Positions 214 through 33,690 of a stretch of DNA of 64,000 bases are shown piece by piece. The DNA is from Phoronis australis. Its lineage: Eukaryota > Animalia > Phoronida. Below the pieces are notes generated by a model, which was given only the letters and a program-made list of their open reading frames with translations, was not told where the DNA came from and did not search any database. The stretch's first letter is position 1. Each line of letters opens with the position of its first letter. Position numbers and translations under genes: made by a program. The stretch spans positions 69,395-133,394 of the forward strand of contig NMRA01000178.1 of NCBI GenBank assembly GCA_002633005.1, given 5' to 3'.

Positions 214-3200
214 GCCAGCTACACTCCAGAACATAACTACTACTGAAAATCTTCTCGACCAATTAGAGACACAAGCTGTTATTGGAGTCGGGAATTACGA
301 GAAGCTGGTCAAAATGCTGGAGGTGCACGGACTGCTTGATTTGAAGGCAAGGGTGGAACAGCAGGCAATTATTGTGGGTAATGAGGACCTTCGGTGAACC
401 TGCAGTGGTCACTAAAAGTCTCATTGGCACTCAACTGGCATACGGTTGACCAATGATTGTTTTCTGCAGGACAGTTTGATTGTCATCGAAATAAGTTTTT
501 ATTAAGAGTGTGGACTATTTCATATGATTTTCGCAAAACTTTGAAACTCGGATGCAATGTATCAAATTTTTGGAATAATGAGACCTACAAGTCTAAGTAA
601 TGATTGACTTTACTTTTTGTCAAGTAATTGTGTATTTATTCAGACTGCGTGACATTGATGTCATAACCCCTTTTGGTGGATTTATTTCAAAGCGTCTGTG
701 TAGCCAGGTCGTCGTTTCATAAAAAGTGAACAGATTATAATATTTGAAGTGACGATGTGTTCTAAATGAGTTTCTTTCAGCCATATGCCACAGGAGTATG
801 AGCTGACTAATCAACTTGAGCGCTCTACGCTGAGCGTTTTTATATTTTGGTACAGTCGCACTTTGAAACAAGTGACCACGTGGCTCAAAATGTTTAATTA
901 ACAATTTAAAAGTCACTGAGCGAGTACCGGTCGGTTTCGAACATAACATAAATATTCGTTTTAATAAAACGACAATGAGATTTTATGATTAATGTTCACA
1001 ATCCTTTCGTTCGCTCCACGCCTTGTTTTCGCTTATTACCAATACAAAAACTTACTCTCCTATCGACTTGTGCTTACATGTACATTGTGTATGACCAGGA
1101 ATTTCAGAAGCGATATTCAAAACTTTTTCTAAAGCAAATCGGTCTACACGTACATGCGCACCGTGCCTGTTTCAGACGACGCAAGTGTCATCACGTTTCG
1201 GAGGCGATTGCTTCAGAAATTGCCCCAGAATTTTCCTCGTGCAATGTGGTCACTTGTGATTCCCTTGATTGGCTGGCTTCTTTACAACACGTCAGGTGAG
1301 AACTTTAAAAATCTCTCGCATCAACCACTCGTTCACTGTCCACCGGTCACGCAATGGTTGACGGGTGGGTTTGTACTGACACTTTTTTACGTGTACATAT
1401 TTAGAACATGGAGACTCAAAAGTGAGAGAAGATGATAAGACAACTGCAGGTGAGTTGAATGAACAACAACAAATGACGTGCGTAGTAAGTTACTTGCAAT
1501 CTGATCTTCCTAAATGAGCTACAACACGTCGTGTGCATGCGTTGTCATCAAGCAACTGTTTTCTTAAATGTCATCACCAATCAGCCAAGCTAAAACTTCA
1601 AGTAGAACACCTAAGGATACGTTTGTTGCGCCACAGTCCTCACAGACACGAGATGAGAAAGAAATGCTGTAGAGCGCAGTGCACCTTTAAAATCGTTAAT
1701 TTAAATACACATCGATCGTTTTCACATTTCTTATGGTAGAGAGCAATTCTCATGGTAAAAAGCGTCTGATTATTTTGATACCATTATTACAATGACATAG
1801 GTCTAACAAGTACCAAAGAGGTTCAGCCAAATGATCAAATGTAAATATGAAAGGAACGGTATATAACCACTTGCCGTTATGAAACTGGTATGTAATTGTT
1901 CCTTTGTCAAATTGCTTAAGGAACATGCAGGAAGTGGTTCAGATCTCTAAAGTTCACTTCTTGGACTGAACGCTGGGTTTACGGTGGCCTCAAAGATTCA
2001 TATAGTCTCATTAAAGTGTAAATATACAAATAAAGTACTAAAATACAAACAACCCCGGGTGCCAAAGGAAGCATCCGAGAACCAGTTACTATTACAATCT
2101 CTTGAAAGTCTCGTTTTGCGAGACTATTTTTATGCAAATGAGTGTGGCAATATTTCATCGTTACCCAAATGAAACGAGACACAGTTTTTATTATTTCTTT
2201 ATTTCCCTATCAAATAACAATTGCGTTACATTTGAAATTGCTAGGTTTTTTATGTGTTCAAATTTTAAGTGTACCAGTTGCACAGTGGTATTTTCTTTAA
2301 AACCACAATTTATTTACACATTGGTTTTCCTGAAAAAACTTGTACACACAGTTCTCCAGGAAGTCACTAGGTGGCGTTTGCTATGAATTTAAATATCCTC
2401 GGTTTTAATTAGACATAGCATCCTTTAACGGAGATAGTTTTACACACTTTACAGGTACTGCTCTAAAAGCGCCAGATGGACAGCCGGTTGTTAGAGCCGA
2501 AAAACTCACTCATGCAACAATAACAATGAGGATACCGACTGGTCCAACGGAGACGGTAAACTAACCATTTCAACAGCTTAAAGAGGCCTGGAACGCAATA
2601 GACAGTCTAAATTGTAATATTGACAGTGGTTCTCTGCCATTGAATCGGGATTCAATCTGCTCACCAGGTATTTTTAGGGTTTGCTCGTAGAGATTTTAAA
2701 TTTTTGTTGACATCAAAGTATTTTTAGTTTCAAATTTCAAAAAAGAATCTGTCGAGTGCTCGCCATTTTTCTCCCACAAGGCAAAGCACGTCTCATTACT
2801 TTGGTACGGAAAGACACAGACATAATACATTTCCTTTATATGAAAAAAGAGACCTTTCACCTCAAGCGACTTCAAGCAACTGACTGGGAGAATTTATCAA
2901 TAGTGAGACACAGAAGCTCTGTGGTAACCATAGAGTTTTCATCTTCGCGTGCATTTCAAAAATTGTGATTTTGTGATTTTTTTTCTGGAAACTAGACCTT
3001 GCGAGGTGGTATTTTCATCATGAATTGTTGAAAAGATAATTTTGACGAGCTTTCGCGTTCCATGCCTCTTTTACACGTGTAGCCAGCAGATATCCTAAAG
3101 TCAAATGTATTGTTTAGCACTTCATTGATTGGCAGAAACACTCTGGCTAAGAGTTCTATTAGTTCACGACATGCACTCGTAAACAATTAGAGTGATAGGG

Positions 3201-4216
3201 AGCCAATACGGAATGGATAGTTCCAACTTGTCAATCTAGCTACCAGTTCTATCTAAGCAGGGCTCAGGAACATAGTAACGCAACGATTGTTATGTTCCTT
3301 CGCAGACCGAAGTATTTTGAACAATGCAAACGATAGTCCGCCATCTTTAGCCTACTAAGATTGGCTGCTAAGAAGGAAAGCGATACGCTTTGGACACTTG
3401 CTATGAAAATGAACGATATACAAAGCACGAAAAAGGAAAATGTAACACATAGCAGACTTGATGATCAGCTGAAAATACAATAGAGTTTCTTTAATAGTAT
3501 CTATTGTGAATTAATAATAAAACTTGAGGAAATGTGTTCAACACACGTGACTTACGAAAACGCTTTGGACATCACAAAACATGTTCATATTTCTAACCGT
3601 AAACCAGCAGTGGACACAACAAATTAAAACATTCAAATGCAATCAAACTACGGGTTAGTAGCTTTTTATCATCACGCTATGAAATTTAATTTTCGTGCAT
3701 CTAGTCTTGTCAACAAACATAAGAGTACGTACAATTACAAGTACCTGCGGTGAGCCCACTTGCTATAGAATGCAGAGGACATTTGTGAATGACAAGGTAA
3801 CTAAGGTGGGCGTGGCCTGACTGCATTTGTCGGAACTATCCACTACTCGTATTGATGGAAAACATCTTCAAACGTTCACTGAGTTGCTTTGCAATTGAGC
3901 AATCAGATATTTTTAACGCAATACTCAAATTAGTGTTCAAAGTGAAAAGCTATTAAATATATTGTTCCCATAGTTGGTCATCACACCGGCGCCAAACCAA
4001 GGTCAACCAATAATATGTGACGTTCTTGTCAGCTGGAGAATACAAAGATTTCAACTGGTCTTCGATGGTTTGGCAATATGTTCTGGTGTCACTGCCAAGG
4101 CGGAGGGATATCAAAGCAAAGGTGGAGCCGTGGAACATGCAATGAAAGAAATAACCCCTCTACTCCTTGGGTCAGGGGTCACAGTTCAGTACGGAGACAA
4201 GACTTGGACTACTTAA
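214..4216 (+). CDS. DED + anti-LPS-factor (ALF)-like domain protein, paralog 1 (first coding exon lies upstream of the window)
   Basis: Exons 214-377, 1405-1449, 2455-2555 and 3974-4216, all GT-AG and phase-compatible (entering in phase 2, then 1, 1, 0). The first visible exon encodes PATLQNITTTENLLDQLETQAVIGVGNYEKLVKMLEVHGLLDLKARVEQQA (C-terminal half of a DED). The last encodes CDVLVSWRIQRFQLVFDGLAIC-SGVTAKAEGYQSKGGAVEHAMKEI (ALF-like). Exon sizes 45, 101 and 243 nt match paralog 2. Confidence 0.85.
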
Positions 4217-4859
4217 GAACATGTTGTTGATAGTCAGTTTATCCTCTGTATGGGAAGTTAGGAAATGATGTCAAATGTGTGATCATTCTGTCCGATGTGG
4301 TCATTGTCCCCTCCTGTTCACAAGGGCGTGGGTTCAAACCCTACTGGACCCCGCTGGACCCCGCTGGACCCCGCTGCTAGACCCTGAAGTACGGCCTGTA
4401 GCTCCTCAGCTCGCTTTTAATATAATTTTATGTGTTATATCATGAAGACAGTAACTGTTACTTCCCTAGCGTCAGCAGACGACTTACAACTGTTGTTTTG
4501 CAGCTAGTTTTGTTTATGTCTGTTATTAATGATCGTTGCTTTCACTTGTAGTAAACTTATATAAGTAATTGTGTACGTGGAGCTACTAACTACTAAGATT
4601 CAGGTGATTTATCTGTAAAATTGCCGCATCGATTAGCTCTTTAAGTTGGTCAGCTGAAATAGGGGACATAACTCCAGTCAGTTATCTAGCTCAGTCGTGG
4701 AAAACCAAGTAAAATAAAGAACGAGAAGAGCCACGACAAAGTTATTGATTTGATAAAAATTTTTCCAACAAAAATCTCAAAACAGCCAATGGGATTCATG
4801 AGTTATAACGTGACACTGGTGACAGTAAACATCCTATATATGACGTTTATTTGAAAAAA

Positions 4860-5460
4860 TAATAACGATAATAAACTTATCAATTAAATAGATGCATAAA
4901 TACTAATGAATATACGAATAAATTAATGTATAAATAGATATATGTATAGTTAAACAAATAAAACTTCATAATTACAAACATAACTAGTTAACTGGATGAA
5001 TAAATACATATTAAACAAATACAGATCAGAAAAGGATAAGTAGAGTGTTGCACTACAGTCAAAGGATGGACTTAAAAATATAAAAAGATCTCTGATTCCT
5101 CACTTTCAAGTTTACGATATAAACATTTTTGCACGTGGTATTGAAGTTTGAGGAAGATTCTGTTTCTCGTAAGTTAGTTGGTAGGCTGTTCCATTTTTGA
5201 CTCTGGTGTAATACAGAAGCAGACCCTACGCAAGCGCATTAAGCAGATGAACCACTGCGGGTATAACAGCGATGAGATCCACGGATAGCAATAGAGCCAG
5301 GGTAGTGAGGGACACGCATTGTAAAAGATATTTGTATCAGACCTGATTCAGAAGGTCAACTCTGTTTTTGCCAGGCAGTAACTTTAGGAAACTCGTTCGT
5401 ACGAATAATAGATCTGTATGGCAGGTTAAGGAGAAAACGACAACGTTTTTGACATCTCTC
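4860..5460 (-). mobile_element. CR1/L2-type LINE 3' remnant (related copies at about 6032-6480 and 19400-19960)
   Basis: Minus-strand degenerate ORF2 C-terminus, clearest at 19735-19929 (KSRLIHNIFYNACPSYL...RSRSYNT), followed by an AT-rich TAAA-repeat tail. It sits downstream of both DED-ALF paralogs. Boundaries approximate. Confidence 0.55.
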
Positions 5461-6843
5461 AATAATTTGGTTTGGCACAGCAGGAAAAGGTTGGGCAAGG
5501 AAAACAGGTTGGGCCAAGAGTTCCTTTCGAATTAGACGTTCCTAATTTGAAAAATTCGTCGAATTTGAAAAATATTTTGTGTGGACTTTTTGTCGGTTCG
5601 TTTGTCACAATAATTGTGGGGTTTCTAAGTACAGTTATCCAATTTTCAGGTCACTTTCACTCCGTATAGTGGGATACTTGAGGCTGTGCGTAAAAACGCA
5701 CAACGCGTAATTGACACACAACTTCTGGGCCATTACCCGTCGGAGTGTTTTACTGTCGTGCTGCAGTGTTGGGCAAATTGGGGTTAAATATCTCTTTCCT
5801 CCTCCCCCCCCCCCTCTTCTCCCCATCCCTAACTGAGATCACAGCCTTCGCCCTTGGCTACGAGTTGAATCTGCAAATAAATCGATTTTGGGGACCGGCA
5901 CATCCCGCACATGTCTGCGAATAAGTAGTTATGTTAGCCTTGGCAGTGTTCGGTGCAAAATGACTTTGACTACAAGTGTGCACGTCGGACCGGTTCCTTC
6001 GTTTATTACCATGCGCAGCGAAACCCCATGNGTTGGTAGGCTGTTCCATTTTTGACTCTGGTGTAATACAGAAGCAGACCTGCCTCCCGTTCAGTAACGC
6101 TAGGACCTCGCTAAAAAGCAAGACTTCGCGAGATTACGTGATAAATTGCCGTGTATTTCAAATGAGAACACGTGACTTTGACTAGGTTTTAGCTAAGTCC
6201 TAGCGTAGGTTCTAGCGTCTACTGAACACACGCCTGGCCAAACCTTCTGCGCAAGCGCATTAAGCAGATGAACCACTGCGGGTGTAACGGCGATGAGATC
6301 CACGGAAAGCAATAGAGCCAGGGTAGTGAGGGACACGCATTGTAAAAGATATTTGTATCAGACCTGATTCAGAAGGTCATCTCTGTTTTTGCCAGGCAGT
6401 AACTTTAGAAAACTCGTTCGTACGAATAATAGATCTGTGTGGCAGGTTAAGGAGAAAACGACAACGTTTTTTGACATCTCTCAATAATTTGGTTTGGCAC
6501 AGCAGGAAAAGGTTGGGCAAGGAAAACAGGTTGGGCCAAGAGTTCCTTTCGAATTAGACGTTCCTAATTTGAAAAATTCATCGAATTTGGAAAATATTTC
6601 GTGTGGACGTTTTGTCGATCGTTTGTCACAATAATTGTGGGGTGTCTAAGTACAGTTATCCAATTTTCAGGTCTCTTTCACTCCATATAGTGGGATACTT
6701 GAGAGTGTGCGTAAAAATATAATAGGTTTTTAAAACCTATTTTACGTTAGCCTTGGCAGTTTTCGGTGCAAATTGAATTTGACTATAACTGTGCACGTCG
6801 GACCGGTTCCTTCGTTTATTACCATGCGCAGCGAAACTTCATG
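5177..6843. repeat. Local tandem duplication (5177-6030 / 6032-6843) joined at a single n; probable uncollapsed haplotypes
   Basis: The two copies are near-identical apart from copy-specific indels, and the junction is exactly the n at 6031. Confidence 0.75.
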
Positions 6844-7056
6844 TAGACGTAAATCTTTTAATCATGAAACGGGTCCTCAAATCACAAAATCCACTTCGCT
6901 ATAGCTACGGAAAATCGGGAATTCTTGACAAAATTCTCGATTTGGTAAGCGCCATTTCAGGCTACCTTGTTTTTAGCTCATGCACAGTCGTTGCCACATT
7001 AGATATTACGTGTCAGAAACTATACGCTGCGGGCACTGTATTGTGGGCACAACGCG

Positions 7057-7208
7057 CAGGGGACAAGGGGGGCATGATGGCCCCCCTAAAGTTCTCTCAG
7101 ATTCCATTTAGCAGATCGGGGGTGCGAATGGCTGAAGGGGAAAATCCTGGCTAATACTCTGCCCTGGTCGCCCCTCATTCAAAATCCTTGATTCTAAGTT
7201 CGCCCCTG
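7057..7208. mobile_element. Degenerate copy of the short CAGTGGCGGAT-type MITE (related to 32993-33141)
   Basis: Internal sequence ccccctaaa..ctc.cagattccat...gcgaat..ctga.ggg.aaaatcct.gctaatactctgc is shared with 32993-33141; ends are CAGGGG...CCCCTG. Confidence 0.6.
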
Positions 7209-10200
7209 CAGACACTGCACAATTCGGGAACAGCTCTGATATAGATAACAACTTCACAGTGACACACGTCAAACACCAACAATGAAAAGCTCGGAGGAAT
7301 AATTCCCTTTAAAACGTGGTGTTTGGTTGATTTTGGTTCTTTTGTCCAACTACAATACAACTGAGAGAGAACACAGTACACAGGCGGCTCGACTCACTTG
7401 CTTCATCACCAAGATGGCGAACCACTCGGCTCACCATACACCAAGTGACTATGCTTCTCTCTCGCAATACATCTATATTTTTCATGAGATTTTGCGAGTT
7501 CTTGCTTTTCTTGCAAGAAAGTAGGTCTACAGAGCTCACACCTGCCTGGCTTTTTGCCAGGTTGCATCAACATTGAATTGTCGTCTGGCTCCATTCACAA
7601 CAACGCATACCATTGTTTACATATCGCATGGGCATTGGCGTTTTTTCCTAAGCGAGATTCATTGATAAGGCAGTTTCCGACTGGTCTTTCACAACACACA
7701 CCTCTCAAGTAAAGCCCGTTTTTATCTAACTGCCGGAATTGGAAGCAAGGTAAGATGGCCCTCATAGCCATTGTTTCACCTAATTAGTTAATTAAACCCA
7801 GTAGTGGTTTGATGCCTTGGTGGTCATTTGTTTACTGGAAGAAATTGAAAATGAAAGCCACGAGCTCGACTTGCCTCGGTCTCTCGTTCCTGTGATTCGC
7901 TTTGAGAGCACGGATGTATGTGCCAAGGTATTTTACTGTTCGCTATGGTATCTTAGTTATCTATGTATACGAAATGCTGGAACACTTGTACGTGACGTCG
8001 TACTTGATGCTTATGTGACTTGAAACATTGAGCAACCTATAGTTAGTTATTCAAACGGAGATTCTTGAATGACCAAGCACATTTTGTATCCTTTTCACGA
8101 AAGACGTCGCTGTAGTCGTCTGGCGACTGATCTTTCACGTATGGCGCTTGTGCAAAAAACGGCTAAATCTCGTGAGATATTATCCAAATAAACCGCGGAA
8201 AAACGGTTCGCGATAGTTGTAATTTGAATGAGTTTCGAATCAGTTATGATTACCTTCTTAAAACTAGTAACTATAACCCTTGTAATTGAGAAAATCTGTA
8301 TTTATCTATCAAAATATAGACTTATCTCCCTTGTCATGCATACTTGGGGAATGCCCTATCGATGATCCCCGGGTAGAATCGTGACGCATGCGGATGATAC
8401 TAGGGTACTTATAGTATTAATTGGAGTAATTTTAAAACGGAAAACATTTAAACGGTTTAGTTGTCACTAAGTGAACATAAAACGTTCACTGTGCGATTAA
8501 AATGAAATAAAATTAGCAAAAGAAGCACATTTGACAGATCAACTGATTGCTCTATTGACGTTCCCACACTGAACTGCAATTGCTTAGCCATGTACTTCAT
8601 CGATCAAAGTTCGGGACCACAATGGCAGATTTGTCAATTTCAAAAGCGTTGGAACACTTGAAGATCAATTTCACTCTTAAAGATGAGCAAAAAGATTGTT
8701 GAGTTGATGACTTTACTACAAGGCCAGAACAGCAACATTTTTTCACAAGACGGCGGTGATGATGATACTGATGATGAAGAAAACAGTGGTGCCGCTTTTA
8801 GTACTTTCTAATTAGTGATATAATTAAAGGAAATTATTAAGTAGTGTATGCTCACACTAAGGCTCTGACGTCAACAAGTGACGGTGTGAAACGCTTGCAA
8901 AACAAGGAACAAGGTTCCAACGTGCCAATTGTGCAATTGTGTTAGAATGGTGAATTTAATGCTGAAAAATTAATTTCAATGATATCTATTCGCATCACAA
9001 CAGGTTTCGCAGCACCGAAATATTATAAATTTTCTAATACACTATTGACCCGGAATTTCCGAATCTGTGTCTGGAGGTTTTACGGAAATTTGGTAACCCT
9101 GCCAAAAATAATCAAAAACATACAACACGGATGCACTAAATAAAATCAAAATATTGCTCCCGAAAGACATGACAACCTGGAATTAACAGGGAACCCAGCA
9201 GCCCTTTTAGATCACCCTAAAGTACAAAAACCTGGGGCACACAGTTGAAAATTCAAATCAGATTTTCATGGATCGTTTTACTGTCAAAATTGCCCTTCAT
9301 TTTTTTTTGTTTTTAGAGAGTAACACTATCAGTGATAGTGTTTTCAAAGCAACAAATGTACAGAGAACGTCATGCAGGCATGTATTTTCAACCTTAACTA
9401 ATTGTAGGAGATCCAAAGTATTTATCATTTTAAATCTTTATATAAAAGTAATCCTGTGTTATACATTGACGCTAGTTGGTAAAAACGAGAGCAATAAAAT
9501 TCAAGTAGTACCTCTCCTTTAATGCAATATGTTTAAACATTGTGTGCGTGAAAGTATAACACACATAATATGCATATCTGGTCTAGCCTTTTTTAGTAGA
9601 GTATTACAGTTCAACAACTGAAATTAAATACCAATAACATGACCGATGTCAGACAGTGACCAGTTAGAGACGGTGGTCACTGTCTAGAGCGATGTGCGAT
9701 ACACAGAATTATCTGTGTTCAAGTGAATTGACTTACGGCCGTAAAATTTGAATCACTGATCAATTTTAGTACTGCAGATGGGAAATATGTTTTACTTAAT
9801 CGTACAAGCTTTTGCAGAAATTCTAAATTACAAAATAGGGCTCAAGTCGGATAAACGGTACCTGACATGGATAACCAGTTTCATCCACTGATAGCGACAG
9901 TAACCCAAGTAGCGACGGTGCAGCTCCTAAAGGAGGTTCATGCCCTGGAAGATTTTCGGCGAATTATGCCTCACACTGATAAAAACATAGGGTGACAATG
10001 CACTGGTTTTACAAAATAAATTGTCAACCAAAGTTATCAAATTTAGGAAATCTGTTAATAATTTAAAGTTTAACTGGCTTACTTTGATACTCGCTGTGGC
10101 GACTGCCAGGTCGTCAAATCGAGCACAGCCCGTACTTAAGTGACCAGCTCTACAGATCATGGCAGTTTAATTCGTGGGGCGCTGTTAATTGTTCCTGTTC

Positions 10201-10228
10201 TTGTCCTCTAGGCTCTGTGTAGCAGACT

Positions 10229-13200
10229 ATGAATGAGGACAAAGTGGAACTTCACTACCAAATCTTCGAACTGATAGAAGACGAAGTTGACACGGAAGAC
10301 TTTGAGAGACTAAAGGCCGCCAGTGGCCGTTGGATTAAGTAAGAAAACAAAAAACTTTGCCTGTGTGTTATAGAAACGTGAATAACTCTCTGTGGCCATT
10401 TTACCCGGTGATTCAATAACAAGCAGTGGCGGATCTAGGATATCACAAGGGGGGCGCCCAACATTTTGTCCGGCTGTAAGCATTAGCGCAAACTGAACCA
10501 CGATTGTAGATGCGCATAGCACCGAATGGGGGGAGGTCGGGAGGGGGTTTGCCCAAGAAATTTTTCTGTTTTTACCTCTAAAAATCAAGCATTTTCCTTG
10601 ATTCCTGAAGTATTATCCAAGAAAAAAAAAAGAAAAAAACACGGAGAACGTGTCAAACAGGAAAAACTCTAAGTATCAAAGACTCGAACTCACGAGCTGG
10701 AGGATAGGGCGCGCATACGTTACCACTACACCNNNNNNNNNNNNNNNNNNNNNNNNNNNNNNNNNNNNNNNNNNNNNNNNNNNNNNNNNNNNNNNNNNNN
10801 NNNNNNNNNNNNNNNNNNNNNNNNNNNNNNNNNNNNNNNNNNNNNNNNNNNNNNNNNNNNNNNNNNNNNNNNNNNNNNNNNNNNNNNNNNNNNNNNNNNN
10901 NNNNNNNNNNNNNNNNNNNNNNNNNNNNNNNNNNNNNNNNNNNNNNNNNNNNNNNNNNNNNNNNNNNNNNNNNNNNNNNNNNNNNNNNNNNNNNNNNNNN
11001 NNNNNNNNNNNNNNNNNNNNNNNNNNNNNNNNNNNNNNNNNNNNNNNNNNNNNNNNNNNNNNNNNNNNNNNNNNNNNNNNNNNNNNNNNNNNNNNNNNNN
11101 NNNNNNNNNNNNNNNNNNNNNNNNNNNNNNNNNNNNNNNNNNNNNNNNNNNNNNNNNNNNNNNNNNNNNNNNNNNNNNNNNNNNNNNNNNCCCCCCCCCC
11201 CCCCTAAATCCGCCTATGACACGTGATTAAAAACACTCGTTCTTCATAAAGGGACTAAATTTTTCAAGTTGAAATCGTTAGAGGTTCCCTTAATTCATTA
11301 CTTGAAATTTAATTCGTCACTCTCTAAGGCCCCTTAGCACATACAAAAGGTGTCAGTAGTAGGCAGGGGTCGTGGGAGCAGCTGGTGTCCTGCGACCCAC
11401 ATTCTGGACAGAAAGTTTCAGAAAATTTGGGCAGAATTTAAGCGCAGCATCCAATGGAAACACAAAGAAAAGACATTCAGAGAAGCTGTAATGACAGTCA
11501 AATACACAGAAATGAATAAACACGAGGCTAGGATTGGTAGCGACCGGGGGTAGGGGGCGGGGTCATCTACCGAAGTGTCGACCGGTTGGAATTGGGGTCA
11601 ATGAGGGAAGAAATAGTGGCGAGCACCGGCGAGTGATAATTACCTTCCTTATGTTCAGGCAAATTTATATCACACGCTGTCCCTAAAAAGTCAAGTCAAT
11701 GGCGTTGTTCCGTAGAGGATTCTAAGAGAAAAGCAAGACCCCGCAAAATCACACGAGCGAAAGGTGGGTGGTTCGCGAATATGTTCAAGACATTCCTAGT
11801 CTAACCTTAACCCAGCAAAATAACGGCCGTTGAAGTCATTGGTAGGTCAGGTTGGAATGTTGCATTATGGGATAGAATTCATAGATTATGGGATAGAATA
11901 GTTTCCGTTGCAAAGACATAAGGTCGTAAGCGCAAGCTCGTATTGCGTCTACTCATCCTAGTGATGCACACGTGGCTTCTATATTGCTAGTACATACGTG
12001 CGTTAAAGACGTTGGAATTCTCTGCCAATGAACATATTTTTAAAAATTGCTTTTCTAGGATTTCATCGTTTACTTTTGTGACTTTTTTTGGATCGCAGTA
12101 GGCTCTATGTCATGAACATCCACAAGTAGGCGCTGTTGTCTATCCACTCCTTCCACGGTCTCCGTCTGCAGTTCCAAGCTCTGTGCAGCCATCAAATTAG
12201 TTAGTTGCCGGTAGAAATTCAAACTTCAACGAATCAAGAAATTTCAATTACTTATTCGAAATCAGGGCTGTTTTTATTAAAATTCAAAAAATTCGGCTGC
12301 ACATCAATTTCGTGTTTTAAGATTTTCTATTGTGAGTGAATCGATCATTGTAGTAACTCTTAATTGTCATTAAAGATGGTTTTTTAAAGAGTCTTAAACA
12401 TAATAGATTGTGTTGGAAATTAAAGGAATTGTCGACAATCAGCCAATGTGCGTCTTGATTTAAAGGTCAGCAACGTTACAGAAAATAACCACCATCCGTG
12501 ATTTGCTTAGACAGTTTGACAAGCAAGCGATAATTGGATTGGGCAATTACGACAAGTTGATTAATCTACTGGACAAGCTCCGCCTGAATAAATTGAAAGA
12601 TGACGTGGAAAAAAAAGCGAGTGAAATAGCCCAGCTTACAGGTAACGTGCACTTTACAGTCGGACTCCAACTCCTTGAACTCGTGACTGCCTATAGATAA
12701 TTTGTAAGTGATGGATCTTCATTGTAGTTTCCTGAGGTTTACCAAATATTCTAATGTACATGTTAGTCGGTTAACAAACACGCATCCATTTCAATTAAAA
12801 TAAAGATGCCCTGAACTCCATCAATCGCATCAAATTAACCTGTCAAAGATAGAAGATGTCTCACAACATTTCTTGTGGTAGTTTTTGTTCTCCATCTTTT
12901 CAGAGATTATAATTATTTACCAATCAAATTTTGCTTTCATTTTTATTCATTTTAGTGCTATCTATTTCGACAACCTCGGTCACCCTTTCATCTGTGGATA
13001 CGAGCTTTTGACGCACACTTTTCATAGTTACGTTCTTTTCGAACAAAAATAATCTCTTTTGAGAAATATCTGAGTTTGTCCTTAAAAACATGATTCTTAT
13101 ACCATAATAAATGTTATTTTTTCTCCTCAAAGAAGGAATGTTACGATTATGATAACTAACAAAAATGTAAGAGTTACAGTAGTTTGATGTTTACAGAGTG

Positions 13201-15451
13201 AGGCCAGAAACAATGATCTGCAGATTGCAATCTGTAGCTGCGGTGTGTTTCGGACACAACCTGCACATATGACAAATTCAAATTTGTACATGCCAATAGA
13301 AATAAAAAGTTGACAGGTGAGATTATACTGACACTCTTTTGCGTTTACACCTTTAGAGCATGAAGACACAGAAGCGGGAGAAGTTGATGAGACAGTAGCG
13401 GGTGAGTGGAATGAACAGCAGAAAATCACGTGCGTGACGAAAATGAGCCACAACACATCACGTGCATGTGTTGTCCTCCAGCAACTGTTTTCCTGTCACC
13501 AATCAGTCAAGCTAAAACTTCAACTAGGATACTTAAGGATTTGTTTGATCCTCCCCAGCACTCATAACCACGAGATGAGGAAGAAAGGCTGTAGAGCCCA
13601 GTGCAATCGTTGATATCAATACACCCTTTTCACTTTTTTATGGTAGAGGACAACTTTCCTGGTAAAAGCGTCACTGCTCTAATACTTTTGATGTCGTTAT
13701 CACATCGACATAGGTCTATCAAATAACAAAGACAAGCAAAATGATCAAGGGCAAATCGATATTTCACAGTAGTTCGGTTGCAAAAAAGTGACCACTTACC
13801 GTTATGACATTGGTCTCGACTTGTTCCTTTGTCAAATTGAACATGATCTCAGGGCTTCGGAAGAACTAAAAGTTAATTATTGGTTGATAACTGACAATGT
13901 CATTTGAAGCGCCGAGCAAGGCCACGGTCACACATATAACGAACAGCAAACCCAGAAGCCACCTTGACTTCTCGCCTGAGTAATATAAGAAACAAATCAA
14001 GACCAATTTTATAGTGGTAAGTGGTTCAGATCAAAACTTCACTTCTCTGTTGAACGTGGGGTTTACAGTAGCCTTTACTGAGATAGTTTTACACACTTTA
14101 CAGGTGCTGTTCAATCAGAGCCACATGGGCAGCCGGTTGGTAAAACCGAAAAACTCACTCACGCAACTATAGCAATGACTCCACGGACTGGTCCAACGGA
14201 GAAGGTAAACTAACCATTTTAACGTTTTAACACGTAGTGTATTGCTTAACATTTTAGTCGTTGGCAGAAACGCTATAGCTAAGTTCTATCGTAAGTTCAC
14301 GACGCATAGCATGACAAAGTCCAGTGAATGGGCCACTTTACGGAATGGATAAGTTCTTACATGTTAATCAGGCTAGCAGTTCCATCTAATCAGGGTTCGA
14401 GAACAAGTTAACGCAACGATTGTTACGTTCCTTCCCAGACCGAAGTATCTTGAGTAATGCCAAACAATAGTCCGCCACCTTTAGCCTACTAACATTGGTT
14501 GCTGAGAAGGAACTTGCAATGGAGATCGACGATATGTGGGGAACGAACAAGAAATTAATGTAACATATAGCAGACTTGACGATCATCTGAAAATACAACT
14601 GAGTTTGTTTAATAGTATTTAATGTGAATTAATAACAAAACCTGGAGAAATGAGGACGAAAACACACGTGACTTACGGAAATGCCTCGTCGACATCCCAA
14701 GACATGTTTTCATTTCTAATGGTAAACCATCACTGGACGCAAAGAATGCAAATTAAATGCAATCAAATTACATGGGCGGTGCACCATGGGGCCTGGGGAG
14801 GTTGCGCCGCCCATAGTCTAAGGGCGATGCACCAGAGGAGGATTGGGGGGCTTTAGCCTCCCACTTTTTAGTGTTGCGCCTCCCATGAACTACTAGGAGG
14901 TATCCTTTGAATCATCATATGAGCTATGAAATTATTCCCGTACATCTAGTCGTGTCCATGAACAAAGGCAAAACAACTACATGTACCTGTGGTATGGCAC
15001 AGCTGTTCAGCGGCATCTGTGAATGACACAGTAACTAAGGTGGGCGTGGCCTGACTGTATTTGTCGAAGCTATCCACTATTTGCATCGATGGTAATATCT
15101 CCAACAACTCACCCAGTTGCTTTGCAAGTAAATTCATTAGAGATTTTTAACGCAATTACTCGAATAACTGTTCAGAGTGAAACGTTATCAAATATCTTGT
15201 TCCCATAGTTGGTCATCACACCGGCGCCAAACCAAGGTCACCCAATGGAATGTGACGTTAAAGTCAGCTGGAGAATAGAAAGCTTTCGAAAGGTCTTCGA
15301 TTGTTTGGCAATATGTTCTGGTGCCACTGCCAAGGTGCCGGGATGTCAAAGTGAAGCTGAAGCCGTGGAACACGCCATGAAAAAAATAACACCTTTACTC
15401 CTTGGGTCAGGGGTTAACGTTCAGTACGGAGACAAAACGTGGACGACTTAA
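10229..15451 (+). CDS. DED + ALF-like domain protein, paralog 2 (complete, 224 aa, no signal peptide)
   Basis: Coding exons 10229-10338, 12466-12641, 13357-13401, 14104-14204 and 15209-15451 (675 nt, GT-AG, open frame). N-terminus MNEDKVELHYQIFELIEDEVDTEDFERLKAASGRWIKSATLQKITTIRDLLRQFDKQAIIGLGNYDKLINLLDKLRLNKLKDDVEK fits the DED helix pattern. An acidic linker follows, then CDVKVSWRIESFRKVFDCLAIC...AVEHAMKKI. An acceptor at 10211 implies an upstream non-coding exon. Confidence 0.88.
10424..11218. mobile_element. About 790-bp non-autonomous DNA transposon in intron 1 of DED-ALF paralog 2 (spans the N gap)
   Basis: Ends CAGTGGCGGATCTAGG / CCTAAATCCGCCTATG, flanks ACAAG/ACACG (imperfect 5-bp TSD). 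Inverted homolog of 35847-36628. Confidence 0.75.
10733..11190. other. Assembly gap (N run)
   Basis: 458 consecutive n. Confidence 1.
14771..14887. mobile_element. Small CATGGG...CCCATG MITE present only in the last intron of paralog 2
   Basis: Absent at the homologous site of paralog 1 (caatcaaactacg, about 3640). Flanks AATTA/AACTA. Confidence 0.65.
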
Positions 15452-16863
15452 GAACACCTAGTTGACAGTATTAGTCTCTGCATAAGAAGTTTGTATATTT
15501 TCAAGATGATCATATTGTCCAAAGTGTTGATTGTCTGCCTCCTGTTTACAAGGTCTTGGGTTCAAACCCCACTGGACCCCACTGCTAGACCCTTGAATCA
15601 TGTCTCTAGCCGTCCTCAGCTCGCTTTTAATATATATGTTGTATCATGAAGACAGTATGTCAGGTGTTTCGTACAATGAGGGGTCTGCGTATGTCTGATG
15701 CAATGTCCATCAGATAACCTGTGCTATTTTTTAACATTTTTTATTTCATAGAAAACAAAATAGAAATTAACATAAAAGAAAAAAATTAACTGCTTAACTT
15801 TTTGTGGTATTCAAAGTCCCGAAAAAAAAGTTTTTACTTACACGGGCGAAGGAAAATTAGCAAACCTTAAGTCGTTAAACCTAATCTGTTTTCATTACTT
15901 TAATTAGAGGTTGTTTTCCAGTAACTTGACGAAAAGGTCACGTCTTGCCAGGATGCATTTGTTTACGCAGGTGTAACAGAGAAACTAATTCGGTGACTCC
16001 CATATTTTTGAAAATGCGTAGGTTCTAAGGACGAAAACACAAACACTGATTTTTTGTAAAATATACGTTAAATGAAAGCTGTGCGAACAACCTTAATTAC
16101 AATCACAAATAAGAACAATAAAAATTACGTCCTTTATTGACCAATTCGGACCCGGCCATACAGTTTCGTCTGCTTGTGTGGAAAAGTCTCGTGCATCTGA
16201 TCTCGGCCAGGGAACTAGGAGCTGGCTACTCTTTTCTCCTGTAGTGTACTAGGACCAAAGCCGCGCGGAAGCAGGTCCTCGACTCGTATTTTTTCCCACG
16301 AACGATCTGGTTTGGTCATATAGAGATCCCAGTCGAACCCAAACTGAAGAGAACATTAATAGTACATGTATAAACACATATTATTTAAACAATGTTATAT
16401 ATGAAATGAAGTCTAGCAAATACATGTAAATTCCACTAATGATACAAATATATGTAACTTCATTAAGTAACGTTTCGGTGAAATCCTCAATCATTTTCAG
16501 AAAATTGCTGACCACATTCCGGGCTATCCTATTCAAAATACATAGGGTATAATAAAACATAAACCTGTGTTTGCTTATACAGGCCAAATGGGACAGTTGC
16601 ATAACTAAGAACAAGGTTCACAAAGAACTACTTTCACTGACCCTGTACGTCAATTTCAAAATACCCATTGTGTGTGAACGACACGGATGATTTAAAGCAC
16701 TTTGCAAAATTCTAAGCCACTATCGGACTAGTTGCCTACCCCCTCCAAGTCCACAATGAGTATTTTTATCCTTTATGGTTGACTGGCCTGGATTTTTTTA
16801 TAAAATTTACAGTCGAATGGTCCAGAAAAACTTTGCAATTAAAAGCAAATTAGAAAACGAAAA

Positions 16864-17671: not shown

Positions 17672-18348
17672 GAAAACATCAGATACTCGTGCCTAGATAC
17701 ACATGTAGCAGTGAAGATGCTTCTTTGAGTAGAATCCCAAACGTGCAAGGCTATACTTACCTCGCCTAGACATTGCCGACAGGCTCCACACGGACCTTGA
17801 AAAAACGGCAGGTCACTGCGAGAACAGAATTATTCAAATTACAAAAACATAATTTCTTGCAGTGCAGTTAGCTTCATCTACGTTCCCAGTAGAAAGCAAA
17901 GTCTAAATTCAAAACAAACCCCTTCCTCATTGGTAACAACTTGGTAAGCTGATGCTTAAAGATGTATTTCGACCCCTTTAGTCAACTAAAACACTAAAAT
18001 AGAACCATTAGCTGTTTAATCTCTTAAATCGGAGAGACTCTATTTCGGATTCCAAATCAAGTCATTGCCAATACCTACATTTTCCATTTTTGATTTGCAA
18101 TTTTAAGGTTGGCCAACAATCTTAATAGATTCTGAAGCGTTTGTTTTCTTGAGTCTCTGATGGTTTTGATGTTCCTGTTGGTAGTGAAGCATTATGGGGG
18201 AATTGCAGCTTTAAGGTTTTGCACATTTGTTCTATGTCATTTAGTAAATAAATGCATTTTCATTACTTTTTATTACTAGTATTGCATTAATTTGCACCAC
18301 TTATATTTTTAATTTTAAATGGAGACGGTAATTTTTTCTTTAGTCTCA

Positions 18349-18525
<177 letters not shown>

Positions 18526-20547: not shown

Positions 20548-23500
20548 GGAAAACTCTTCCGAACCACTTACACTATATGGTGGCTTAAAGATAAGTCGGG
20601 CGAATTCATTTTGACATCCGCTCAATATTTTTTTATTTAGTTCGGCAAAGCCCAAGCAAGGAAAGAAAAAGATTGGGCAAAAATAAATTATCAAAAATAC
20701 TCGTTTGTGGGTTTTCTTGCTAGAGTTATTCAATGTTCAGGTCATTTTTTCTCCATAATGGAATAATTTCACGTGAGCCTGTGCGTAAAAATAAAATAGA
20801 TATTTAATACATATTTTTATTGAAACACGAAACGTAAATTAGAGTTAGACACATTTTCCCTCCCCTCCCCTCCCACCTCCCCCGTCCCCTCCCCCCCCCT
20901 CCCCCCCCTTCTTTTAAGTGCGATCACAACATTCGCTTTTAGCTACAAGTCGACTCTGGAGAATTATCTTGCTCCGCACAGTCGTTGCCGCGTTAGATAT
21001 TACGCGTCTGGACCCCTACGCAGGAGCTGTATATTGCGGGCACGCTTCGCTTGAATTTGTCAGGCTACGACAGTTGACAGGAATGGCGGCAAGTGAGATC
21101 ACTGTGTGGTAGTTGCTTAGCGATGGGAGAGGGCAGGGGGCAGCTGCCCAGAGCACCATCAGTGAACGGGCCCTTGTGCGCTGGCAGACTTCAAATACAC
21201 AAAGTTTTTCTTTCGTGAAGAGTGAATATCACTTGAGCGCACCCTCCCCAGTCGACAGTTTCGTCCTTCCCCCGGTCCTCACAGTCTTTCACTCCACTAG
21301 TTGTCCCGAGATCAGACATGTCTCGCTCGTTAGTTAAGCTTATATTAACTCAACGTGCGCTAGATCCTCTACAATCAAACATCCTTGTCCGCGCTCGGTT
21401 CGGTCCTTTCCCGCGGACATATTAGATTTCATTGGTTAAATATATTTCCGTGAGCATATGGGCTCGTACTTCTCATCTGACCCTTGTGTGCTCCACTTAG
21501 ATCATTCCTCAGTGATGTTATTTCATCATACCCATGACGTCACATCCTGGCCCTCCCATTGGCGTCTGTGTCACTGCTCCAGGCGAATGACACGACCATT
21601 CAGTATTTCAATTAGCTGTGTTTTTTCTTACCTTAGTATTGCTCCGTCTTGGATAAACGTCAGTTTTTAGCGTCACTTACATAGCTGTTAAAGCCGGTAA
21701 AAATCATTTTTTTTGTATTCATTTAACCTGCTGAACAACCTCTACTACCAAACAATCTTTTACCTTTTTTTGTACTGAGCTTTGAAAATTGCTTTGACTT
21801 CCCCATTTTTATTCATTACACCATAGGTAGTGGATTTCCTATATGCTTCATTTAACGTGAAAATAACCGACCATTTTAGGCAACCGTCCTTTTTATCTCA
21901 GGAAACGAAGCTTCGCTGACGCACAGACTTTGTTCATTTTGGGACGGTAGAACATAAATTTCATTGCTCGCGGAGTGGCAAATCCCGCTCCCGCACATTA
22001 TCCCCTACTCACTCAGTCACTTCGTGGACGAACTCGTCGACCGAGCAGCTGGATTGACTGTGTCCGATTTTCCTCACTAAATTATGAAATCAAATAGAAA
22101 TAAACATTCTCCAACTACATACTGTGAATGTCACCCATTTTATTAATTTTTATTGCAGAAATCAACGATACTTCTTGAATACTCGTATTCAGTGGATCAT
22201 GGCATACGAGAACAACTGATAGTTGATGATTTTTTATTGACACATGAAAGGTAAATAGCCGTGATATGATTCTGTTTAAGACGAAGATAGAAAACCGGCG
22301 GTAACGTAGATTTTCACGGCCTTTTGCTAGTAGAGTTTGTATCAGGCCATGCAAATTGCCCTCTAGAAGGAGCGAACGGCGTCCGAGGGTACAGATTAGC
22401 TTTCGTGGGCAGAAAATAGTGAGCGGGAACAGAATCGTCCACCAGCAAGCAAAGAAATAAATTATGTTCGCGTACGGGAAGTGGTCCGGGAGGGGGTTAT
22501 GCGTCCGAGAAAGGGAGATAACCTGCGAGAGATGATTTTCTGTGCGGCAATCCCGAGCACCACAGAAGTCTAGCTACCTTGCATTAAATGTCTGTTGAGG
22601 GGTCATTTGCAGCACATAATTCTCTGATCACTTTTAGTGACTGGGGCTATATTTCTCATTTTCGCTATAAGGCTTTTTATAAACATACTGAAGAACAAGC
22701 AAGCCACTTCATATGCAGATTCACACAATTGTAACCTTTTCCGTTCACATCACTAAGAGGCCTTTTAGGCATGCGCTATACCAGTCGGTTCCTACATTTC
22801 CGCTCAGCGTACATTTTATTATTAAAATATCATACAATACACATATATGTACATAACTTAGTGATACACCGGTATTTGATCACGTGATGATGAGGTTATG
22901 TTATTGTTCATGAACGATTTTCAACACCAAACATCAGCTAACACAATACATATAACACAACTACAAATAATAATTTTAAAATGAAATTGTTTCAAACCAA
23001 CAGAAAATATACTTCAAACTAAAGGTTAAAATGCGTTCAAAATAGCAAAAAAGCAAATAAATAAAACCCATCACAAAATTAATGCATTTACAACACATTT
23101 TTGCAACTATGCATGGTAAACATCTTAAAGGTCTCAGTAAAACCAAGTTGTGGATTGAGGTAAAACTGTGTTTCAGTTCATACACTAGTTTGTGTAAAAA
23201 GGGTCCATAAAGTACCTTAAAATAGGTTGAGATCCTGAGTTATAAGACATCCTCCACTGCTTGTCTCATAATTTACCAAATGCCCCATCATTTCAACTTC
23301 AAAAAATAGTCATCTTTTCTGACTAGAGCTCAACAAATAAAACTTTAATAGGATAAAACCTGGAAAAGAACTTACAATATCATTTCCAATACAGTCAAAA
23401 ATGTTTCATACCTAGATGTCGCAGGTGCTTGCATTGCGGTATTAAATTGTTTTGGTAAAACATAACTCGTGAAAACCTACCAGTTGCTCTTCGTGACCTC

Positions 23501-24201
23501 TTCCAATTTGTGACATAATATTAAGAAATCAATGCCTCCACAACAAATGTAAAATCCCCGCCACCACTTTTCTACTTAAGTGACAAGTCACAACTTTCCA
23601 AACTCCAAGTTCTCACAAACTAATATTATTCGTTGCCTAGAAACAGCAACAGTGACAGTACAATCTATGTTCGCAAAACTGGATTCCCATAATTAGCATA
23701 TAAGATGGGACAAATCAATGAGGACCCGGGGGTCTAATCTTGGTACTGAAATCAAACTCAAAATCATTTTTACATTCTGTTTTAATTTGTGGGAGCTCAA
23801 GGTAGGTGTCCATTATTCTGTGCACGGGGATCCTGTGATTTACCTGGACGACTGTCTAATCCTAACTGGACTTTAATATAAATGCTCTACGTTTGAGCAT
23901 GGACTCGAAATTTCAAGTTTTTACTCACAATCTCAAGATCATAGAAATCATTAAGTGCAAGCTTGGACTAGACATAAACCATCAAAAACAATAAAATACT
24001 CGAGCACACGACGGACACTTACCTTGAATTTCTAGCAGCCCTAAGATGTCAAATATAGTTTCAAGTTCACACCGGCTCAGAATTATAAGTTAAATCACAG
24101 ATTCTTAATGTGCAAAACTGTCACAAAATATCACCATGCAAAATAAAGTTGGAAATAAACTAGTGTTTCCTCACAGTAAAAAGCTTTAAAGAGGTCAATG
24201 T

Positions 24202-24390
24202 TTAGGAATCCACTGTTTGTATATCGTCACTAATCTTCTGTTGTACTGTTTTCACGTTGTTGTTGCCTGACATAATCTTTTCTTCCTGAAGACTGTCTGG
24301 AGTGAAGGCCAGGGGCAATAACTCCGAAACTTTCATCTTGTGAAATGAGTGGTCAGGTCTTGTCATGTACACCATCCAGTCAACACCAAA
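24202..24390 (-). CDS. Second copy of the terminal cytidine deaminase exon (likely allelic/assembly duplicate)
   Basis: Encodes the same peptide (FGVDWMVYMTRPDHSF...IQTVDS*) as 26176-26364, with an intact acceptor. Confidence 0.5.
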   Translation of the reverse strand, partial: FGVDWMVYMTRPDHSFHKMKVSELLPLAFTPDSLQEEKIMSGNNNVKTVQQKISDDIQTVDS

Positions 24391-26175
24391 CTGCAATATA
24401 TAAATATACAAGGCAATGAACACCTAAAGAGGCGCAAAGGCTATACTAACTGCCAGAACAATTGAGACTATTGTCGACCACTTGTAATCCAAACTAGGCC
24501 CTAAAGAATCAGGAAATGAACTTAAAGTGGAGCTTATATGCTGTGATTGCTTGGAAAAATTAGTAAGAAACAAAACATACATGCATAGCCATGATGTGAA
24601 TATGAAGTAGGTTCGATAATTGCCTAATATTTTTAAGAACAAGTTTTTTGTGTCGGAAATTATCCGCTCCGCCGCAAATCACTCAACGCTGGTTCCTAGC
24701 TCAACGGTATACAGTAAGTATCGCGACGTGGTGCTGGGGAAAAACAGTGCATGATGCGGGTTACGTGCCCTGTAAAACATATCTATGGATGTTGTGAGGA
24801 GTGGGTGGGATTATATGCATTTGTACAAGCCTATGTGCGGCTTGTTTGGTGTAGACATTTCCATGGTACATGTGCGTGAATGGTCAAAACTAAAACCAGC
24901 AAGCGATCTTCTATTTTTGGTTATGGTGACGGGCACAGTCACATGGAATTTTGTTTTTGTTTTGTTTTGTTTTGTTTTTTAAAAGTTTTATCTCATGCAT
25001 CAAGATTTATTATCTTAACTACATGTTTTAACATTTGGTTTAAGTTTTTTAATTGTATTATGTCCTATTACCAGTATGGTATTGTGTAGTATTTGTTGTA
25101 TTATATCATTGTATCATGTTCTATTGCATGTATTGTATTGTGCAGTATTACAAATGTTGTGCTTCCTACTATACTCATGACGTCATCCTGGAAAGAAGTG
25201 TTATCGCTGAAGAGTTCACCTCATGTTAAAAATAACAATAAATAAATAGAAATAAAAATAAAACAAAATACATGACAACGTAAGTGCATGAGAAGCTGCT
25301 CTTACCAAAAAATAACTCCAGGCTGANAACTTTAATAGGCTAAAACCTGGATAAGAACTTACAATATCATTTCCAATACAGTCAAAAATGTTTCATACCT
25401 AGATGTCGCAGGTGCTTGCATTGGATATTAAATTGTTTTGGTAAAACATAACTTGTGAAAACCTACCAGTAGCTCTTCGTGATCTCTCTTAATTTGTGAC
25501 TTAATATTAAGAAATCAATGCCTCCACAACAAATGTAAAATCCCCGCCACCACTTTTCTACTTAAGTGATAAGTCACAACTTTCCAAACTCCAAGTTCTC
25601 ACAAACTAATATTATTCGTTGCCTAGAAACAGCAACAGTGACAGTACAATCTATGGATTCCCATAATTAGCATATAAGATGGGACAGATCAATGAGGTCC
25701 CGAGGGTCTAATCTTGGTACTGAAATCAAACTCAAAATCATTTTTTACATTCTGTTTTAATTTGTGGGAGCTCAAGGTAGGTGTCCATTATTCTGTGCAT
25801 GGGGATCCTATGATTTACCTGGAAGACTGTCTAATCCTAACTGGACCTTAATATAAATGCTCTACGTTTGAGCCTGGACTCGAAATTTCAAGTTTTTACT
25901 CAAAATCTCAAGATCATAGAAGTCAATAAGTGCAAGCTTGGACTTGACGTAAACGAGCAAAAACAATAAAATACTCGAGCACACGACGGACACTTACCTT
26001 GAATTTCCAGCAGCCCTAAGATGTCAAATATATTTTCAAGTTCACACCAGCTCAGAATTATAAGTTAAATCACAGATTCTTAATGCGCAAAATTATAACA
26101 AAACATCACCATGAAAATAAAGTTGGAAATAAACTAGTGTTTCCTTACAGTAAAAAGCTTTAAAGAGGTCAATGT

Positions 26176-33690
<7,515 letters not shown>

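Follow-up and report, generated by a model that had tools for sequence, protein, structure and literature searches.

Introduction

As the available parts of two accounts (PMC10672452; PMC6213531) describe them, the anti-LPS factors (ALFs) of chelicerates and crustaceans are precursors with one domain and a signal peptide. For the shrimp protein ALFPm3 (2JOB), K39 is given as crucial in vitro in the available text of PMC10131219. Group D ALFs keep two of seven lipid-A-binding residues and bind LPS 20-fold worse, as stated in the part of PMC3701609 at hand.

Fusions of a death fold to a sensor domain are common in marine invertebrates, as far as the accessible sections of two studies go (PMC2575513, PMC8195603). 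They include 'direct connection' proteins (DED-NACHT, DED-TRADD-N with variable C-termini), in which, as at the locus described here, an N-terminal death fold is followed by a linker that is flexible and of low complexity, and by a shuffled, variable C-terminal domain. The same sections hold nothing relevant on an ALF-like partner, lipopolysaccharide or DUF3254. The available part of PMC4558505 describes the E/D-RxDL charge triad of death effector domains (DEDs), and also single-DED regulators and short FLIP (PEA-15, FLIP-S/R), where, again as here, one gene gives both a longer form and a DED-only product.

Results

Gene models

The stretch of Phoronis australis DNA analysed here (the window; 64,000 nucleotides) carries two copies of the gene in tandem, with all features on the forward strand. 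At copy B, exons 10229-10338, 12466-12641, 13357-13401, 14104-14204 and 15209-15451 join into 675 nt, encoding 224 aa and a stop, with zero internal stops and AG/GT at all junctions. The first coding exon (10212-10338), which holds the N-terminal part of the DED, has its ATG at 10229 and an in-frame TAG at 10220-10222; its acceptor was placed from a pyrimidine tract. DED exon 2 (12466-12641) is followed by an acidic linker micro-exon, e4 (13357-13401), and a linker exon, e5 (14104-14204), both in-frame DNA models, and by the ALF-like last exon, e6 (15209-15451; 80 aa). At copy A, exons 214-377 (exon 2, the C-terminal part of the DED), 1405-1449 (acidic micro-exon e4, in frame, with AG/GT and paralogous to 13357-13401), 2455-2555 (e5, an in-frame DNA model) and 3974-4216 (the ALF-like last exon, also 80 aa) join in frame with phases identical to those of copy B. 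The two last exons are identical at 62/80 aa. The first exon of copy A lies before the start of the window. Translations of the 8625 region and of further ORFs lying between the copies show that these belong to neither gene.

The N-terminus of copy B is an acidic DED helix and is not hydrophobic (hydropathy maximum 0.78 over 11 residues), which agrees with an earlier note on this DNA that the complete copy has no signal peptide. The DED-ALF protein would be cytosolic.

The DED is split over two exons, and Pfam scans were made on single exons only. DED was the best Pfam match for the DED exon of both copies (E 5.3e-4 in B and 0.0039 in A). The scores against PF01335 (20.6 and 17.8 bits; gathering cut-off 35.9) are those of half domains, at profile positions 32-79/82, and they support the proposed DED identity. 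The 36-aa piece of the copy B first coding exon, scanned alone against Pfam, gave 0 matches. At what we take to be the RxDL site, positioned after FADD, copy A reads L-L-D-L and copy B L-N-K-L, so that by eye the motif is degenerate in both DEDs.

Relationship of the last exon to ALFs

The C-terminal domain, put at about 100 aa in the earlier note, is coded by an exon of only 80 aa. Its Cys pairs (4016-4081 in A; 15251-15316 in B) have 20 residues between them in both copies, and the net charge of the hairpin is 0 in A and +1 in B; both observations were correctly made before. The sole Pfam match of exon 6A was PF11630 (E 0.0098, 16.5 bits, below the cut-off of 25), and the register of the Cys is consistent with the Pfam coordinates. 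Exon 6B had no match to PF11630 in the Pfam scan; against a repeat HMM it scored 14.8 bits, with all shuffles below (maximum 7.7). The ALFPm3 hairpin aligned ungapped with the last exon at 7/22 identical residues.

A phmmer search of 1.84 billion representatives yielded 8 matches, 6 of them PF11630 proteins above cut-off. Two matches, P0001 (ankyrin repeats) and P0002 (a repetitive tick protein), were dropped as summed-repeat noise. The nearest sequence relatives are multi-repeat PF11630 proteins from JGI/IMG (P0003-P0008, P0011-P0023), probably of microbial eukaryotes, which share the G-A-V-E-H-A helix motif with the last exon (GAVEH in 26/61 repeats). Unlike the DED-ALF copies, most of them are built of several repeats, in many cases preceded by a hydrophobic anchor at the N-terminus, and their hairpin is Lys/Arg-rich with the Cys pair in just 6/61 repeats. 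The profile of these relatives had ALFPm3 2JOB as its top PDB sequence match (E 0.15). One of their ALF-type repeats was modelled confidently (pLDDT 93.4), and 2JOB ranked first for it (TMq 0.73, rmsd 1.8). The copy A last exon aligned with the ALF-type repeats at an hhalign value of 92.6% over 36 columns. The Gly positions conserved in the S-x-G-G-A-V-E-H-A motif are altered in exon 6B.

Modelled directly, exon 6 gave a poor structure (pLDDT 46.8) of three strands and one long helix, the ALF fold being three helices on a four-stranded sheet; the model's alignment A3 was shifted across the hairpin. Foldseek gave no match for this model at E up to 0.001, and 2JOB was absent among the Foldseek and VIA matches listed for it. 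Nothing relevant came from the PDB when it was searched by sequence with exon 6A, A1, A2 and A5. The ESM Atlas provided leads only: clusters without names for exon 6A (0.82), and ALF clusters for a repeat of a relative (0.77 and 0.75).

The PF11630 match of copy A, the hairpin identities and the 2JOB-like fold of the relatives support the ALF relationship proposed earlier, and on these sequence comparisons the last exon is a remote ALF relative. It shares with the ALF/scygonadin family a Cys-x20-Cys hairpin followed by a strand, a helix and Gly, with a weak Pfam match. Unlike ALFs, the domain lies C-terminal to a DED, is without a leader in copy B, scores below the cut-off and has lost its lipid-A residues.

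Were the last exon instead a dsRBD-like RNA binder, the protein would be a dsRNA-to-DED sensor, which we regard as most improbable. Pfam gave no dsrm match at E up to 10, and sequence identities to dsRBDs are 5-18%. In place of the basic, KKxAK-type start of dsRBD helix 2, the helix opens with S-K-G-G-A (copy A) or S-E-A-E-A (copy B). The fold itself is uninformative, as the ALF-type control model also matches dsRBDs (TMq 0.70-0.71). A dsRBD fold, which the earlier note would have counted against ALF, is thus non-discriminating, the confident ALF-type repeat model matching 2JOB and dsRBDs almost equally; nor does it refute ALF kinship, because ALF shares that core.

Ligand-binding residues

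With the two Cys as anchors, K35, K39, K50 and R52 of ALFPm3 correspond in both copies to D, S, D and L. Of the seven lipid-A-binding residues no more than one is kept (R62 at most, as K). Anionic group D ALFs are also without most of these residues, the DED-ALF copies keeping fewer still (at most 1 vs 2 of 7). Because group D also lacks most of them, the loss weighs against LPS binding more than against ALF ancestry.

This bears directly on the cytosolic LPS or lipid A receptor, analogous to caspase-4/11, that was proposed before. ALF ancestry, the retention of both Cys and an aromatic residue (F) at Y49 are in its favour, as are simulations which put the lipid A tails in a hydrophobic cleft (available text of PMC10131219). 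However, two of the lysines have turned into Asp, fewer residues are kept than in the poorly binding group D (PMC3701609, in part), and exon 6 has no N-terminal ALF helix ahead of the first Cys. LPS is therefore unsupported as the likely ligand and such a receptor is very improbable; the loss of the ligand-binding residues of ALFPm3 leaves no basis for naming a ligand.

The neutral pI of exon 6 (6.75 and 6.9) and the disappearance of its cationic ligand face would also suit a protein-protein module. DED-ALF would then be an adaptor like FADD or ASC, linking DED platforms to a partner that carries this domain too, e.g. an ALF-prodomain caspase. The layout of two domains fits such an adaptor, and many of the dsRBD-fold structural neighbours were, by their titles, solved as protein-protein complexes. 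Within the window, however, there is no ALF-domain caspase and only the two ALF exons score. Changes in the hairpin between the copies (8.5 non-synonymous : 0.5 synonymous) suit a ligand face better, though the excess is not significant (p 0.34). An adaptor role appears unlikely on balance.

Age and selection of the linker-ALF cassette

Exons e4-e6, with their introns and the 3' UTR, form a duplicated or converted cassette (1357-4453; partner 13309-15657) with blastn blocks at 71-85%. Around the DED exons no intron similarity was found between the copies. The dS is 0.19 for the cassette vs 1.37 for the DED exons; the cassette is therefore much younger than the DED split, and exon shuffling or conversion is pointed to. 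On this reading the two DED genes are old, and the cassette came to them later as a graft or conversion tract. The difference in age had been missed in the earlier note.

In exons 4-6 there are 0 indels, where the flanking introns would predict 11.4 (P about 1e-5), and 1.7% of the runs of a neutral simulation retained both an open frame and undamaged splice sites. For e4-e6 together the dN/dS is 1.0, and for e6 by itself 0.69 (p 0.38); purifying selection on amino acids is thus not demonstrated. The DED exon has a dN/dS of 0.31 (p 0.001).

Transcription

RNA was searched in one set of contigs (X5) and three sets of reads (X6-X8), with 18-19% of each raw run covered. Loose ends before 214, in 2 X5 contigs, 9 X7 reads and 19 X8 reads, confirmed the acceptor at 214 and indicate a spliced exon upstream of copy A exon 214-377. 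RNA depth at 351 was 19/15/28. The abundant copy A RNA passes the DED donor and reads to a stop at 395-397, giving a DED-only product. This terminal stretch (378-968) is covered in X5, X6, X7 and X8; stranded cover runs from 378 to about 865-900, and no stranded cover was present at 901-1950. The AATAAA at 963 may be used as the poly(A) signal. That the dominant copy A transcript is DED-only had escaped the earlier note. Unlike PEA-15 and FLIP-S/R, the product has one DED, made via intron read-through and with a degenerate RxDL, and any inhibition by it is putative.

The ALF exons had only 1-4 reads. For exon 6A, X6 and X8 each gave about 2 reads, on the sense strand, and X7 gave none. X8 alone covered e5 of copy A, over about 16 letters, and e4 of that copy had no cover at 95% likeness. 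At copy B, DED exon 2 was covered in X8 only (bin mean 0.39), and the last exon by an X5 contig at 15374-15544 and no other letters. The last exons of both copies are thus transcribed at a low level from the sense strand. No joint among the DED, linker and ALF exons was listed in any of the 4 runs. The X8 depth of 156 letters (2 x 78) fits two reads from the 3974 acceptor, one of which would carry about 21 letters on exon 5; this is arithmetic and not a listed joint. Of the two spliced DED-linker-ALF paralogs claimed previously, the in-frame DNA models stand in both copies, but the RNA check of the exon junctions reached only the acceptor at 214 and not the DED-to-ALF joint.

These data raise the question whether the working product is a DED-only decoy or regulator of the PEA-15 or short FLIP kind, the linker-ALF tail being a rarely spliced, drifting graft. 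The depth over the DED and its read-through in X5-X8, vs 0-2 reads on exon 6A, would agree with this, as would the dN/dS over e4-e6 set against that of the DED exon and the changed motif glycines in B. Yet frame, stops and all splice sites are kept in both copies over about 20% divergence, both last exons are transcribed, the RNA covers 18-19% of each raw run, and immune isoforms may need induction. We consider the DED-only reading doubtful.

Search for the architecture in other species

None of the 19 multi-repeat PF11630 relatives carries a DED. Exon 6A alone against longer proteins (0/75 candidates) and a DED-exon alignment search (0/606) were weak negatives. A metagenome pattern scan reduced 121 pattern matches to 3 loci. 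One locus (L001), presumably resembling a flavin monooxygenase, was rejected as chance, its likeness being a short residue run picked by the pattern. Rfam gave 0 matches. No description of a DED-ALF protein was found in literature and protein searches, as the earlier note had supposed.

Discussion

The explanation that we prefer, tentatively and at somewhat less than an even chance, is that of two tandem DED genes with a shared younger cassette, in which a rare long isoform senses a ligand other than lipid A and the DED-only RNA damps the response. One mRNA would join the DED and ALF exons. The ligand of the ALF-like domain in this cytosolic isoform would be microbial but not canonical lipid A, and may be a pathogen protein, a glycan or a lipid of another kind. 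Binding would cluster the DED and recruit a FADD- or caspase-8-like DED partner, for which the abundant copy A DED-only isoform may compete, as a damper. Short FLIP forms compete for a DED partner, and AIM2-type proteins are two-domain sensors of comparable layout. The explanation is favoured by the matching-phase models, the lack of indels, the PF11630 match and the lack of a signal peptide in B. It is weakened by the missing DED-ALF joint in RNA, the dN/dS of 1.0, the lost motif Gly in B, the poor exon 6 model, the degenerate RxDL and the lack of a DED-ALF protein found in another species.

In a wider and still more speculative form, the ALF fold, familiar from secreted antimicrobial peptides of arthropods, would have moved into the cytosol in a marine invertebrate lineage and been wired directly to cell death: DED-ALF receptors or adaptors would trigger DED/caspase assembly, the DED-only isoform would tune it, and ALF-prodomain caspases would complete a new pathway.

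If the tail is vestigial, the value of the locus falls to a case of domain shuffling in the DED family. Exon shuffling appears to be caught here, with one cassette behind two much older DED genes, and the core that ALF and dsRBD have in common can be put to use as well. Little is known of how invertebrates detect microbes in the cytosol and couple this to cell death. The question is made testable by a protein that is small, has two domains, one of them ALF-derived, and lends itself to expression and assay; the finding would also widen the ALF fold beyond the secreted arthropod peptides.

Gene models of the two copies

The window is intron-rich animal DNA, and splicing by coordinates yields two plus-strand gene models, copies A and B, each joining a DED, an acidic linker (exons 4 and 5) and a last exon (exon 6) resembling an anti-LPS factor (ALF). 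The five coding exons of copy B (10229-10338, 12466-12641, 13357-13401, 14104-14204 and 15209-15451) encode 224 aa plus stop, and four exons of copy A lie in the window (214-377, 1405-1449, 2455-2555 and 3974-4216). AG/GT is found at every junction and exon phases are identical in A and B. In copy B, an in-frame TAG stands three codons 5′ of the ATG given an acceptor ending at 10211; two weaker acceptors a few bases further on would skip it. The N-terminus of B is non-hydrophobic. The Cys positions and hairpin charges of the earlier note were recomputed for both copies and are correct.

An interspersed repeat at 10424-10732, in the first intron of B, is abundant in RNA on both strands, and its tRNA-like end adjoins an assembly gap (10733-11190); a second, at 6076-6234, is likewise RNA-abundant on both strands. 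Two minus-strand genes with exons in 17793-18456 and 28927-31144 are presumably cytidine-deaminase-like, judging from a PCGACRQ motif. A single open frame of 762 codons on the plus strand (51537-53825) encodes ankyrin repeats and a SOCS box. One long minus-strand exon (59533-61137) encodes an adaptin beta subunit (Adaptin_N, E 2e-75), which we take to be AP-4 beta. A 1.4 kb tandem duplication of 94% identity (23341-24765 and 25328-26721) and an array of 81-84 bp units (49335-49758) are also present.

Identity of the DED and ALF-like domains

Pfam agrees with the proposed DED, which was the best family for both second DED exons (exon 3; E 5.3e-4 and 3.9e-3), though these half domains score under the cut-off. 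For exon 6 of A, the ALF family PF11630 was the sole Pfam match (E 0.0098; 16.5 bits against a cut-off of 25); in the same scan exon 6 of B gave three chance-level matches and none to PF11630. A phmmer search of 1.84 billion representatives returned eight matches. Six are unnamed multi-repeat JGI proteins, each with PF11630 above cut-off, their phmmer E-values being sums over 3-4 repeats; the other two were dropped as repetitive noise. Of 1676 segments in the window, an HMM built from 61 repeats picked out the two last exons alone as significant. They score 22.8 and 14.8 bits, where 2000 shuffles of each reached 7.8 at most; the score of A is biased, since A itself retrieved the first six repeat proteins. 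Profile-profile comparison of last exon and repeats gave 92.6% across 36 columns. Against PDB, the repeat profile placed shrimp ALFPm3 (2JOB) first of three rows (E 0.15), spanning the whole domain, and in that alignment the hairpin of A is identical to 2JOB at 7/22 positions, gap-free. The last-exon domain is related to ALFs, as the earlier note had it, but falls outside that family on the Pfam cut-off, the leader and the ligand residues alike. That it instead serves a dsRNA sensor is very unlikely.

The JGI proteins (P0003-P0008, P0011-P0023) each hold as many as five ALF-fold repeats, which are cationic and for the most part lack Cys; in many of the proteins an N-terminal hydrophobic anchor comes first, and they seem to be an ALF-related family outside arthropods. 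The Cys pair present in both copies here occurs in only 6/61 of their repeats.

Ligand residues

Seven charged residues of ALFPm3 have been proposed to bind LPS, and group D ALFs with 2/7 of them bind it 20-fold worse, according to PMC3701609; K39 is reported in PMC10131219 to be crucial in vitro. With the Cys pair as anchor and 2JOB numbering, both copies have D, S, D and L in place of K35, K39, K50 and R52, neither E25 nor K26 survives, and R62 is perhaps retained as K over a two-residue gap. These replacements make canonical lipid A binding by the ALF-like domain unlikely, so that the LPS sensing earlier suggested is not favoured and a true LPS receptor appears very improbable. An adaptor in which the ALF-like domain serves protein binding is also unlikely, though less so.

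RNA evidence

Three stranded raw runs (X6, X7 and X8; 18-19% of each read) and one contig set (X5, presumed RNA), all with the same species label, were used. The DED exon of A is covered in sense to depths of 19, 15 and 28 at position 351. Loose read ends 5′ of 214 prove that an exon further upstream is spliced on; its final codons, as in B, read W-I. Cover crosses the donor at 378, stops at about 865-900 and is absent over 901-1950, depth dropping between 351 and 427 to 2, 0 and 11; the read-through stretch has a stop at 395-397, and AATAAA lies at 963. This RNA therefore ends in a terminal stretch and encodes a DED-only product. Compared with the window, its reads show about nine differences and diverge beyond 865, so their source may be a different allele or a paralog very close in sequence. 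Several variant classes at 214-377 (250, 257, 350, 351), with a mixed loose-end consensus, suggest that DED paralogs or alleles exist beyond the window's two.

Exon 4 of A had no cover at 95% likeness. Exon 6 of A drew about two reads apiece from X6 and X8 and nothing from X7. Going by depth arithmetic, the X8 cover could consist of two reads cut off at the 3974 acceptor, of which one carries a further 21 letters or so from exon 5. In copy B, exon 3 had scarcely any cover, while exon 6 had about two reads in X7 and about four in X8; one X5 contig is identical to the window over 15374-15544. Among the joints listed, each requiring at least three reads, none linked DED to linker or linker to ALF. 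The two spliced DED-ALF paralogs previously proposed are real as DNA-level architecture, and both last exons are covered; a single mRNA fusing DED and ALF exons is putative.

Despite the scarce exon 3 cover of B, stranded sense RNA covers 13351-13884 (mean 1.6, 1.4 and 5.1), perhaps a transcript from B or a further paralog ending by read-through of exon 4; an open frame at 13332-13613 overlaps it.

Evolution of the linker-ALF cassette

DNA common to A and B begins just 5′ of exon 4 (1357 and 13309) and extends through the 3′ UTR with about 80% intron identity; comparison of the introns around the DED exons found no similarity. The DED exon has a dS of 1.37, exons 4-6 one of 0.19. These sequences indicate that two much older DED genes came to share the linker-ALF cassette by copying or by conversion, in either direction. 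The 1370 aligned non-coding bases contain 40 indel events, a rate that predicts 11.4 indels in the cassette's 389 coding bases, where none occurs. Only 1.7% of 5000 neutral simulations kept five splice dinucleotides intact without stops. Both copies have thus been kept in frame. Across exons 4-6, dN/dS is 1.0; exon 6 by itself gives 0.69 (p 0.38) and the DED exon 0.31 (p 0.001). The hairpin shows 8.5 replacement versus 0.5 silent changes between copies (p 0.34), a pattern that would fit either relaxed constraint or diversification. A DED-only decoy with a drifting ALF tail, as the DED-only RNA and relaxed constraint would have it, is rather unlikely.

Novelty and proposed role

No DED-ALF fusion was found in the largely open-access literature searched, main texts being covered; the domain-architecture source data of PMC8195603 may be relevant to novelty. 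Among the papers listed, ALF and DED were co-mentioned in two crustacean immunity surveys, with a single DED mention in each; searches for PF11630, DUF3254, ALF-like in mollusc and ALF in amphioxus gave no fusion in the text seen (including parts of PMC8221624). None of 19 relatives carries a DED, in a search that scored 7999 candidates with a query dominated by the repeats.

The likeliest of the readings, though at less than even odds, is that a rare, perhaps inducible long isoform would use its ALF-like domain to bind some ligand that is not lipid A, cluster, and recruit a FADD- or caspase-8-like DED partner, and that the DED-only isoform would dampen it. An immune role of the architecture is plausible. 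Death-fold fusions are already known as a class (PMC2575513, PMC8195603 and PMC4558505).
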